Shown here: piece after piece, positions 1,914-9,303 of the stretch
Layout: the number at the start of each line of letters is the position of its first letter
Position numbering within the stretch: the stretch's first letter is position 1
Origin: a virus
Taxonomy: Duplodnaviria; Heunggongvirae; Uroviricota; Caudoviricetes
Direction: 5' to 3' (one strand)
IMG/VR virus record: IMGVR_UViG_3300029504_000072
Length of the DNA: 13,090 nt
The notes under the pieces: generated by a model
Told to the model about the DNA's origin: nothing
The model's input: only the letters and a program-made list of their open reading frames with translations
Database searches by the model: none
Translations under genes and position numbers: made by a program

Positions 1914-3108
<1,195 letters not shown>

Positions 3109-6766: not shown

Positions 6767-6976
6767 TTATTTTCCCGCTTTTTCTGAGCCAAAAATTGTT
6801 TCTAAAGCCAGCATGTTATATTTGAGAACCTCTTCTCGAGTTTTACCTGATAATTTTGCGGTAACAGCAATATAAAAAGGCAACACTTTATCCAGAAGGT
6901 CGTTGTGTTTTGTCAGTTGTGGTAATACCACATCAAGTTGCTTACTGATTGGTTTGAATGGATCTATACCGTTCAT
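6767..6976 (-). CDS. Hypothetical 69-aa protein, antisense to the lysis operon
   Basis: Minus-strand ORF MNGIDPFKPISKQLDVVLPQ...FGSEKAGK; AGGGA 8 nt upstream of its ATG (spacing long); ends at the shared hairpin. No family recognised. Confidence 0.45.
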   Translation of the reverse strand: MNGIDPFKPISKQLDVVLPQLTKHNDLLDKVLPFYIAVTAKLSGKTREEVLKYNMLALETIFGSEKAGK

Positions 6977-7103: not shown

Positions 7104-8131
<1,028 letters not shown>

Positions 8132-8314
8132 ATTAATATTAAATCGGATTATTTTTAGCGCTGAATGTGAAATTTAAATAAAAAGGACTCTTCCATGAGT
8201 CAAAATCCTTGAAATCTTAAGGGTAAGATAAAAGGTCATTAGACAGAATGACACGTTTTATTAATAAATAAAGCTATTGTTTCATTCGTGTGTTTTTCTT
8301 TACAAAAGTAATCC

Positions 8315-8391
8315 TTGCTATGGTTGGTTAATCATGCGTTAATGGTGTTCTGGTTTGTTACAAAATTATCTGAAGCAGTCATTGTTATAAT
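8315..8391 (+). promoter_or_regulatory. Candidate promoter region for the cold-shock gene
   Basis: cspA-like -35 TTGCTA (8315-8320) with 17-bp spacer to -10 GTTAAT (8338-8343), preceded by an AT-rich UP-like tract; alternatively an extended -10 TGTTATAAT at 8383-8391. Either gives a long (about 95-145 nt) 5' UTR. Confidence 0.35.
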
Positions 8392-8494
8392 TTTATTATT
8401 TGTACCTCTTGAGATTTCCTTGTTGGTTTTTCTCTCTGATATTTTTTTTCGGACCATTCTGCCCAAGGGCTAACTTCTTCAAAAGGTAATAATG

Positions 8495-8707
8495 ATGTCT
8501 AACAAAATGACTGGTTTAGTGAAATGGTTTAACCCTGAAAAAGGTTTTGGTTTCATCACGCCGAAAGATGGTAGCAAAGATGTGTTTGTCCATTTCTCAG
8601 CTATTCAGAGCAACGATTTCAAAACGTTAACTGAGAATCAGGAAGTAGAATTTGGTATTGAGAACGGACCTAAAGGCCCCGCGGCTGTTCATGTTGTGGC
8701 ACTTTGA
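8495..8707 (+). CDS. cspI: CspA-family cold-shock protein (CspI-like, 70 aa)
   Basis: Cold-shock domain with RNP1/RNP2 motifs ([16 protein letters not shown]); protein [20 protein letters not shown]...; RBS AAGG at 8483-8486. Start taken at the second ATG (8495), not the track's 8492. Synteny with rz, gnsB and terminase fits the Qin cspI context. Confidence 0.9.
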
Positions 8708-8906
8708 GGTAGAAAATATTACAAACCATATTCACTTTAGATGCCCGTGTTGCCATGGTTCTCAGTATAGAACATCATCTTTTGATGTTTCTGACAGGAA
8801 TCCTTTCGGGGCAAAATGTATCTTTTGTAAATCAATGATGATTACATTTGATAATATTTCACAATACTTAAATGTTAGCCGTCTGTCGTTAGATTTAAGA
8901 AAGTGA
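8691..8906 (+). CDS. Hypothetical Zn-ribbon small protein (Ogr/Delta-like Cys spacing), overlaps the cspI 3' end
   Basis: 71-aa ORF from ATG 8691 (17-nt overlap with cspI); four-Cys motif CPCC-x21-CIFC; followed directly by a strong terminator. No good RBS, so possibly translationally coupled or not a gene. Confidence 0.3.
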
Positions 8907-8913
8907 AAATGAA

Positions 8914-8934
8914 GGCTCCTTCGGGAGCTTTTTT
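8914..8934 (+). terminator. Rho-independent terminator with UUCG tetraloop
   Basis: Stem GGCTCC / GGAGCT (one G-U pair), loop TTCG, then a T-run through 8934. Confidence 0.7.
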
Positions 8935-8978
8935 GCTTAGTGTCTAGTCGATGGATACTCACATATTACGGTAACATT

Positions 8979-9209
8979 ATGAAAAAAATAATAGTTTTTT
9001 TTAACTCTGAACCAGCAATGGTAGTGCCAGTGATGACCGGAGTTAACACCATCATGCGTGAATATCCAAATGGCGAAACAACACACCTCACTGTAATGGC
9101 TGCAGGGTTTCCATCTCTGACCGGAGATCATAAAGTCATTTATGTAGCAGCGGATCGACATGTAACTTCAGAAGAAATTCTGGAAGCAGCAATGAGACTC
9201 TTGAATTGA
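8979..9209 (+). CDS. Hypothetical 76-aa protein between cspI and gnsB (YnfN/YmcE-position gene)
   Basis: ATG at 8979 (the track's ORF starts at GTG 8940); product MKKIIVFFNSEPAMVVPVMTG...; assigned by position only. Confidence 0.45.
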   Translation: MKKIIVFFNSEPAMVVPVMTGVNTIMREYPNGETTHLTVMAAGFPSLTGDHKVIYVAADRHVTSEEILEAAMRLLN

Positions 9210-9303
9210 TTTGATTCTAATGCATTGATAATAAATGATAATCATCTTTATCTGTTTGTGTGAAATTTAGACCGTCGTATGTTGATTATTGCGATGTTTC
9301 ATC

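Follow-up and report, generated by a model that had tools for sequence, protein, structure and literature searches.

The region analysed here, positions 8132–8934 of a 13,090-nucleotide (nt) stretch of viral DNA (the window; IMG/VR record IMGVR_UViG_3300029504_000072, Caudoviricetes), is the cspI-ynfQ cold-shock operon of the Escherichia coli Qin-type prophage, which has been described previously. The RefSeq annotation of identical DNA was transferred to window coordinates. It places on the plus strand cspI (8495–8707; WP_000066495.1), encoding a cold-shock domain protein of 70 amino acids (aa; Pfam CSD, E = 1.6e-31; NCBIfam CspG/CspA models), followed by ynfQ (8718–8906; WP_071528545.1, "cold shock small protein YmcF"), a YmcF-family gene with an ATT start for a 62-aa Cys4 microprotein, a putative zinc ribbon. 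A cspA-type promoter and leader precede cspI, and an intrinsic terminator follows ynfQ. Positions 8132–9300 share 99.9% identity with many E. coli chromosomes, among them that of the B strain REL606, and a copy at 90% identity or more occurs in 2149 of 5426 complete genomes. Our best overall explanation, in which we have high confidence, is that the cspI-ynfQ transcription unit is a moron with the lysis cassette on one side and the terminase genes on the other, in a Qin-like lambdoid prophage.

The product of ynfQ belongs to a recognizable protein family. The Pfam model PF23641 (YmcF-like) matched YnfQ over residues 1–61 with an E-value of 6e-33 (112.6–113.2 bits against a cut-off of 27; profile positions 1–61 of 62). 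Homologs in 118 clusters, mostly of 62 aa and, where named, all from Enterobacteriaceae, came out of a search through 5.8 billion proteins, and an exhaustive hidden Markov model search of 1.84 billion representatives gave 43 matches, adding only a few divergent members. Twenty-three columns were invariant in an alignment of 20 sequences, among them the four ligand cysteines, and all are present in the YnfQ of the window. We assign the ligands to C9, C12, C34 and C37 (C-x2-C-x21-C-x2-C), because the middle Cys of CPCC varies among relatives.

Conservation was then measured at 80 loci taken from contigs of one genome per species, 77 of which (L004–L083) allowed the full open reading frame (ORF) to be read. 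Over codons 2–46 (67 distinct sequences), the proportions of nonsynonymous and synonymous differences were 0.10 (pN) and 0.78 (pS, saturated), with a median ratio of nonsynonymous to synonymous change (dN/dS) of 0.059; the other two frames of the same DNA gave ratios of about 2. An earlier reading of this DNA, made without database searches (the sequence-only reading), had proposed the conservation and Ka/Ks of the ORF as a check, and the result favors a coding function. It had also named frameshifts or stops amid conserved nucleotides as the mark of a non-coding stretch, a pattern that was not seen among the 77 loci. The ORF was intact at 76 of them, with a length of 62–64 aa, the sole outlier being a 57-aa variant (L064). 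Seven extra loci found with tblastn aligned over 61–62 residues.

Transcript data point the same way. In RNA sequencing (RNA-seq), the fold changes of cspI, ynfQ and ynfN were near-identical in three conditions, and ynfQ is tabled as "cold shock induced" (PMC11228462); in a separate RNA-seq data set, ymcF/E track cspG. That the ORF rides on the cold-shock transcript, as the sequence-only reading had proposed, is borne out by the PF23641 match, the dN/dS of 0.06 and the co-induction of the three genes. We conclude that the Cys4 ORF after cspI is, as judged from its conservation, a genuine protein gene. The "YnfQ" of VanOrsdel 2018 is another protein, of 37 aa, at position 1,632,890, and the small ORF beside cspI in that work is YnfR. 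In the phage collection, five of the seven full-length matches to ynfQ had no annotated gene, the phage records including 2H10, mEp460_ev081 and PhiR63_1. The gene has likely been left unannotated in phages since gene callers disallow ATT starts.

The homologous start codon, eight codons before the first Cys, is ATT at 57 of the 77 loci, ATC at 4 and ATG at 16, and it is ATT at all seven loci added by tblastn. In the window this ATT lies at 8718, which is also the RefSeq start. It is preceded at a distance of 8 nt by a Shine-Dalgarno (SD) sequence, GAGG (8706–8709, plus strand), that overlaps the cspI stop codon TGA (8705–8707), so that the start stands 10 nt past the final base of that stop. 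This arrangement is general: the loci carry an (A/G)AGG ahead of the start, and wherever a csp gene was detected immediately upstream (51/51 loci), the csp stop T(A/G)A forms the first part of the SD sequence T(A/G)AGG. The first base of that stop lies 13 nt ahead of the start codon at 43 of these loci, as in the window, and 12 nt ahead at the remaining 8. At many loci, the part of the open frame that precedes the conserved domain contains no ATG, GTG or TTG, and a non-canonical start is therefore forced by sequence alone. Comparison across the loci thus leads us to conclude that translation of ynfQ most probably starts at the near-cognate AUU at 8718 rather than at the upstream AUG at 8691. 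In 2017, D'Lima and colleagues reportedly identified YmcF and YnfQ, with ATT starts, as microproteins of the cold-shock response. A further publication refers to D'Lima et al. 2017 on AUU initiation in E. coli.

The identity of the start codon varies with the presence of the upstream partner. None of the 51 csp-adjacent loci has an ATG start, compared with 16 of the 26 loci that lack an intact csp immediately upstream. The loci with ATG belong to Klebsiella and Raoultella (some of which retain part of the csp 3' end), Silvania and Citrobacter sedlakii, in the last of which a degenerate csp is fused in frame to ymcF. No cspA-type leader was found at the stand-alone ymcF loci checked for one. 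Because ATG replaces ATT only in lineages without an adjacent csp, the weak AUU start may depend on translational coupling to csp, a proposal to which we give a chance slightly short of even. Under this model, initiation at AUU would fall mainly to ribosomes that come straight from termination on cspI, 10 nt upstream, or whose passage unfolds or exposes the site. How much YnfQ is made would thereby follow Csp translation, and hence cold shock, and loss of the csp partner would lead to selection for AUG. Such covariation between an ATT start and csp coupling yields a model, open to testing, of the way in which a near-cognate start codon is put to use and kept.

Some observations weigh against this interpretation of the start. 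Only some 3–4 independent ATT-to-ATG changes underlie the link of start codon to coupling, which makes the statistics thin. There are also exceptions, namely a Pseudescherichia group, in which ATT persists although no csp is adjacent, and Atlantibacter, with ATT-ATG. Finally, the upstream ATG at 8691 is open in frame in this allele, where a minor 71-aa isoform is conceivable. As a separate observation, in-frame Csp-YmcF fusion ORFs were seen in C. sedlakii (L011 2298–2689) and in the proteins P0002, P0031 and P0114. The csp part of the C. sedlakii fusion lacks the conserved RNA-binding residues (VKEFN, FVPSS), and its ymcF has ATG; the metagenome fusions may be sequencing frameshifts.

The structure of YnfQ was modeled with AlphaFold2 (AF2). 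A model built from 87 sequences reached a mean predicted local distance difference test (pLDDT) score of 70, with 77–86 over residues 11–40; a first model, from 20 sequences, had been discarded (pLDDT 59). In the 87-sequence model, two CxxC knuckles flank short strands at residues 17–19 and 32–34, and a predicted C-terminal helix covers residues 44–60. No significant structural neighbors of the model were found. A sequence profile search of the PDB gave matches at chance level only, such as the CPxCHG motif of UvrA (E = 0.13), and two other candidates were rejected: the NCBIfam family ECs_2282_CxxC (E = 0.003, 17 bits where the cut-off is 37) and a relationship to YnfU (hhalign probability 1.4%). 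A 2026 review models YnfQ as rubredoxin-like with Fe2+ (PMC13348028). Our own tentative proposal, which we hold to be possible at best, is that YnfQ would bind Zn2+ through its four cysteines and act as a small module on nucleic acid or on the transcription or translation machinery during cold acclimation.

Could the stretch after cspI instead be a non-coding structured 3' untranslated region (UTR) or a 3'-derived small RNA (sRNA), with a fortuitous ORF? The Rfam sRNA STnc220 (RF02077) gave a full-score match in Salmonella (102 bits, gathering threshold 60), and in some species a stable 3' RNA fragment may exist besides the coding function. Against a purely non-coding stretch, the strong purifying selection is confined to the ynfQ frame, and the protein motifs are invariant across genera while synonymous sites are saturated. 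The cspI-ynfQ junction shows no conserved or covarying structure (consensus −3.7 kcal/mol, with a compensatory change in one of eight predicted pairs), the window-only fold has a z-score of −1.9, and no Rfam family other than cspA matched in the window, STnc220 included. A conserved RNA structure sequestering the ynfQ start region was looked for, and none was found. With 76 of 77 ORFs intact and this lack of conserved junction structure, the structured 3' UTR that the sequence-only reading had kept as its alternative has to be given up, and we regard it as extremely improbable. Nearly as improbable, in our view, is that the functional, translationally coupled gene is the 71-codon ORF from ATG 8691, which overlaps the last 17 nt of cspI. 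Its frame is open from ATG to TGA in the window and at some Citrobacter, Raoultella and Salmonella loci, and some database entries are annotated at 70–71 aa. The upstream in-frame ATG, however, is present at only 30 of the 77 loci and is missing or separated by a stop at the other 47. It arises from csp codons (C/A)AT-GTx, here as a by-product of the cspI codons His-Val-Val, and synonymous changes in csp abolish it. In K-12-type ynfQ the ATG is directly followed by a stop (ATG-TAG-TGG), as it is in L004, whose YnfQ protein is identical to that of the window. No SD sequence precedes 8691 (CCGCGGCTGTTC), and PF23641 matches the 71-aa form only from residue 10 (E = 1e-32). The nine-codon extension itself (8691–8717, plus strand), open in this allele, is not conserved, and its residues show no conservation beyond the constraint imposed by the csp overlap. 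What the sequence-only reading described as a 71-codon ORF overlapping cspI by 17 nt is therefore a real open frame (8691–8906) with a real C-x2-C-x21-C-x2-C motif, but the conserved start at ATT 8718 leaves no overlap.

Apart from its start and coding status, ynfQ could differ from our account in its ancestry: YnfQ might share a remote origin with the Ogr/Delta zinc-finger proteins that activate late genes in P2/P4-type phages, and its target, like theirs, might be RNA polymerase or promoter DNA. Aligned by hhalign with P2 Ogr alone, the YmcF profile scored a probability of 58.8% (P = 9e-5), and with Ogr family profiles built from 35 and 43 sequences 26.3% and 20.7% (P about 1e-3). The alignment is plausible; it pairs the motifs F(R/H)CPxC..H...RTS..D and C...(M/F)IT(F/Y)(D/E).(I/V)..Y(L/I), the Ogr side reading FHCPLCQHAAHARTSRY..D / C..TFITYESVQRYI. 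When Ogr decoys were made by shuffling the non-Cys columns and keeping the cysteines fixed, 1 of 200 trials in one set and 2 of 300 in another scored as high as the real profile, and the control Cys4 protein YnfU obtained a probability of only 1–2%. The two proteins are also similar in size (62 vs 72 aa), and temperate phages carry the genes of both. Several results speak against kinship. The Pfam family Ogr_Delta (PF04606), which all relatives of P2 Ogr carry, was unmatched by 20 of 20 YmcF-family members at E-values up to 10. The hhalign probability drops as the Ogr profile deepens, and no bridge to Ogr was seen among 13 more divergent matches inspected (of the 43 from the 1.84 billion representatives). 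The cysteine pattern of YnfQ differs from the Ogr pattern C-x2-C-x22-C-x4-C (C4, C7, C30, C35), and so does the genomic role, as the gene is a moron beside csp, found also at the chromosomal cspG locus, and not a P2-type late-control gene. As judged by these profile and family matches, YnfQ is not an Ogr/Delta member, and we consider even a distant relationship unlikely. The likeness in Cys spacing remarked on by the sequence-only reading does not hold, since the third and fourth Cys are separated by x2 and not x4, and PF04606 remains unmatched.

The ideas of coupling and Ogr/Delta kinship can be combined. In this joint reading, YmcF and YnfQ would be made only by ribosomes finishing csp, and as distant Ogr/Delta kin they would join the Csp antiterminators in acting on RNA polymerase or nascent RNA; it includes that an AUU placed 10 nt after the csp stop enforces the dependence and reverts to AUG upon loss of csp. 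We think it improbable. If it holds, a cold-shock transcription module made up of two proteins would travel with lambdoid phages. For this conserved cold-shock microprotein, the weak Ogr-like signal provides the sole clue to function.

The intrinsic terminator of the unit (8911–8934, plus strand) begins five bases after the ynfQ stop. It consists of a 9-bp hairpin (8911–8932; GAAGGCUCC-UUCG-GGAGCUUUU) closed by a C(UUCG)G tetraloop (8920–8923) and a run of six U (8929–8934). The core stem (8915–8928) has five G-C/A-U pairs, and the outer pairs are G-U and A-U. The U run follows the core stem, and its first four U pair in the outer, weak part of the extended hairpin. Folded with RNAfold in a 51-nt context, the terminator reached −14.8 kcal/mol (z = −2.46; 1 of 200 shuffles equally stable), so the "very stable" terminator of the sequence-only reading does follow the ORF but is solid rather than exceptional. 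A generic terminator scan reported this stem on the minus strand only. At most family loci a hairpin and U-tract stand directly after the stop, with unrelated stem and loop sequences, and a UUCG loop occurs only at the Qin-type locus. The terminator must be leaky, with readthrough into ynfN, because ynfN is co-induced with cspI and ynfQ. In Salmonella, the STnc220 match (L020, L033 2647–2726, plus strand) spans the last ~40 nt of the coding sequence of the ymcF homologue and the terminator; weaker matches occur in Citrobacter (L009, L011). Because the match covers the end of the coding sequence and the terminator, the catalogued STnc220 "sRNA" is the 3' end of the csp-ymcF mRNA.

The terminator hairpin also supplies codons 2–8 of ynfR, which starts 2 nt past the ynfQ stop. 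In the window only a remnant is left (8909–8947, plus strand; a 13-codon RefSeq pseudo-CDS flagged "too short"), with 12 codons before TAG compared with 21 codons in K-12, a TAT-to-TAG change having shortened it. The 21-aa YnfR of K-12 has been detected by sequential peptide affinity (SPA) tagging and is cold-induced (PMC6001520). In the comparison across loci, no ynfR-like ORF was found at ymcF-family loci outside the Qin type. These results suggest that ynfR is a young, lineage-specific and dispensable ORF.

Upstream of cspI, 363 nt separate the rzpQ stop from the cspI start (8132–8494), with a GC content of 0.27–0.33 compared with ~0.50 in the lysis genes. The promoter of cspI is of the cspA-type sigma-70 class (8315–8343, plus strand), with a −35 element TTGCTA (8315–8320), a 17-nt spacer and a −10 element GTTAAT (8338–8343). 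Alignment with the sequences upstream of K-12 cspA, cspG and cspI showed the TTGC of the −35, the TTAAT of the −10 and GGTTTG to be invariant, and the GCC(G/C)AA(A/G)GGC box and the AAGG SD sequence before ATG were also kept. The cspA-like promoter elements seen by the sequence-only reading are thus confirmed. A generic sigma-70 scan missed this promoter owing to the T at the second position of the −10. The cspI 5' UTR is 145 nt long according to PMC6719143, citing Wang et al. 1999. From this length and the position of the promoter, we infer a transcription start at ~8350, seven bases past the −10 hexamer. Since the start is placed there, only the last ~145 nt of the spacer are 5' UTR (8350–8494, plus strand). 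The "360-bp AT-rich non-coding leader" of the sequence-only reading is thus a true AT-rich spacer, most of which is promoter and intergenic DNA. The part upstream of the promoter (8132–8314, plus strand; GC 0.27–0.29, no RefSeq annotation) lies outside the transcript and may serve as an UP-like element. On the minus strand of this spacer we noted a weak rseX-like match (8178–8267; 27 bits against a gathering threshold of 50, E = 0.1–0.7), upstream of the cspI promoter, which ends in a terminator-like hairpin (8201–8186) and a U-run. It may be a degenerate sRNA gene or a chance match; true rseX genes lie 1–1.7 kb downstream of ymcF in Salmonella loci.

By sequence match, the leader itself is a cspA-type RNA thermometer with a cold-box-like GGUUUG and an AAGG SD sequence. 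Rfam RF01766 (cspA thermoregulator) matched positions 8337–8753 (112.3 bits against a gathering threshold of 78, E = 1.3e-28, model positions 1–428). In-cell and in-vitro probing of the cspI UTR revealed a long stem-loop at 37 °C that buries the SD sequence together with the start codon, and a shorter, register-shifted stem-loop at 10 °C that exposes both; the temperature-dependent switch of the K-12 UTR was seen by dimethyl sulfate (DMS) probing (PMC13271884). The UTR of the window differs from that of K-12 cspI at few aligned positions only. With the RF01766 match (112 bits vs 78) and the experimental demonstration of the cspI thermometer, the view of the leader as a thermosensing 5' UTR is correct and already known. 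An ORF listing that begins at 8492 gives a 71-aa CspI, as positions 8492–8497 align as ATGATG with ATTATG in K-12. Because K-12 has ATTATG, we take the second ATG (8495) as the conserved cspI start.

The genes around the operon place it in a prophage. On the upstream side, RefSeq lists the Q antiterminator, IS5, and holin and endolysin genes, ending with rrrQ (7104–7637) and rzpQ (7634–8131); the next gene of the cold-shock module downstream is ynfN (8979–9209, plus strand; 76 aa), then gnsB, and terminase genes lie on that side. With lysis genes upstream and terminase genes downstream, the region is the moron slot of a Qin-like lambdoid prophage. The same module occurs in the free or infective lambdoid phages 2H10, mEp460, Tritos, HannyBb and PhiR63_1, and gene order is identical in K-12: cspI, ynfQ (b4724), ynfR (b4749), ynfN, gnsB. 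No complete genome of the collection matched more than 80% of the window as one piece. The ynfN gene is annotated at 76 aa in the window, like the ymcE-type homologues of Raoultella and Klebsiella, and at 51 aa in K-12, where it appears to be N-terminally shortened or called differently. An IS5-family transposase (1982–2962, plus strand) sits after the prophage Q antiterminator gene. A 69-aa ORF (6767–6976, minus strand) between the DUF1327 (ydfR-like) gene and rrrQ is a RefSeq hypothetical protein in related strains and had no NCBIfam match; its identification as the zinc-binding protein YnfU was rejected, K-12 YnfU being encoded between essQ and cspB.

As a discovery the locus carries little weight, as cspI, its thermometer leader and ynfQ are already in K-12, RefSeq and the literature. 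Its value is rather as a calibration case: working from the raw sequence, a reader picked out a real gene whose ATT start had hidden it from ORF finders and from most phage annotations.

The closest known system is the Qin prophage of K-12, whose YnfQ (b4724) is an orthologue with 95% protein identity (3 substitutions). The two share the position after cspI, the arrangement GAGG-N8-ATT, the UUCG-loop terminator and the neighbors ynfR, ynfN and gnsB. They differ in that K-12 has ATG-TAG where the window has ATG-TTG, so that the 71-codon frame is absent from K-12, and in that K-12 has an intact ynfR of 21 codons and a ynfN annotated at 51 aa. YmcF (b4723 family; PF23641), encoded downstream of cspG, is a paralogue of 62 aa and 65–68% identity. 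Like ynfQ, its gene starts with ATT, 13 nt from where the csp stop begins, and it has an SD sequence overlapping that stop and a terminator following. Unlike ynfQ, it lies at a chromosomal locus, with another terminator hairpin sequence and loop, and it has no ynfR-like ORF and no upstream in-frame ATG. At the cspG locus of E. coli K-12, ymcE and gnsA follow downstream.

The leader resembles the long 5' UTRs that precede cspA, cspB, cspG and cspI (RF01766) in its full-length match, promoter hexamers, GGUUUG, GCC(G/C)AA(A/G)GGC box and SD sequence. Compared with cspA, the cspI UTR is shorter (145 nt vs ~160 nt) and divergent in its middle part. The 3' end of RF01766, which corresponds to the cspA terminator, aligns poorly in the window because ynfQ follows cspI instead. 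At the protein level, the Ogr/Delta proteins (PF04606; P2 Ogr) share with YnfQ a small phage-borne Cys4 architecture and a weak profile similarity over both knuckles and the following strand, but they have x4 between the third and fourth Cys where YnfQ has x2, and their context differs. The N-terminal zinc-binding domain of MqsA (YgiT) resembles YnfQ in fold only, below significance (Foldseek E = 0.7) and at 13–16% identity, and YnfQ has no helix-turn-helix domain as MqsA does. An AUU start is also used by infC and pcnB of E. coli, and initiation factor 3 discriminates against this codon. For these two genes no preceding cistron is known whose stop overlaps the ribosome-binding site, whereas at ynfQ the cspI stop does so.

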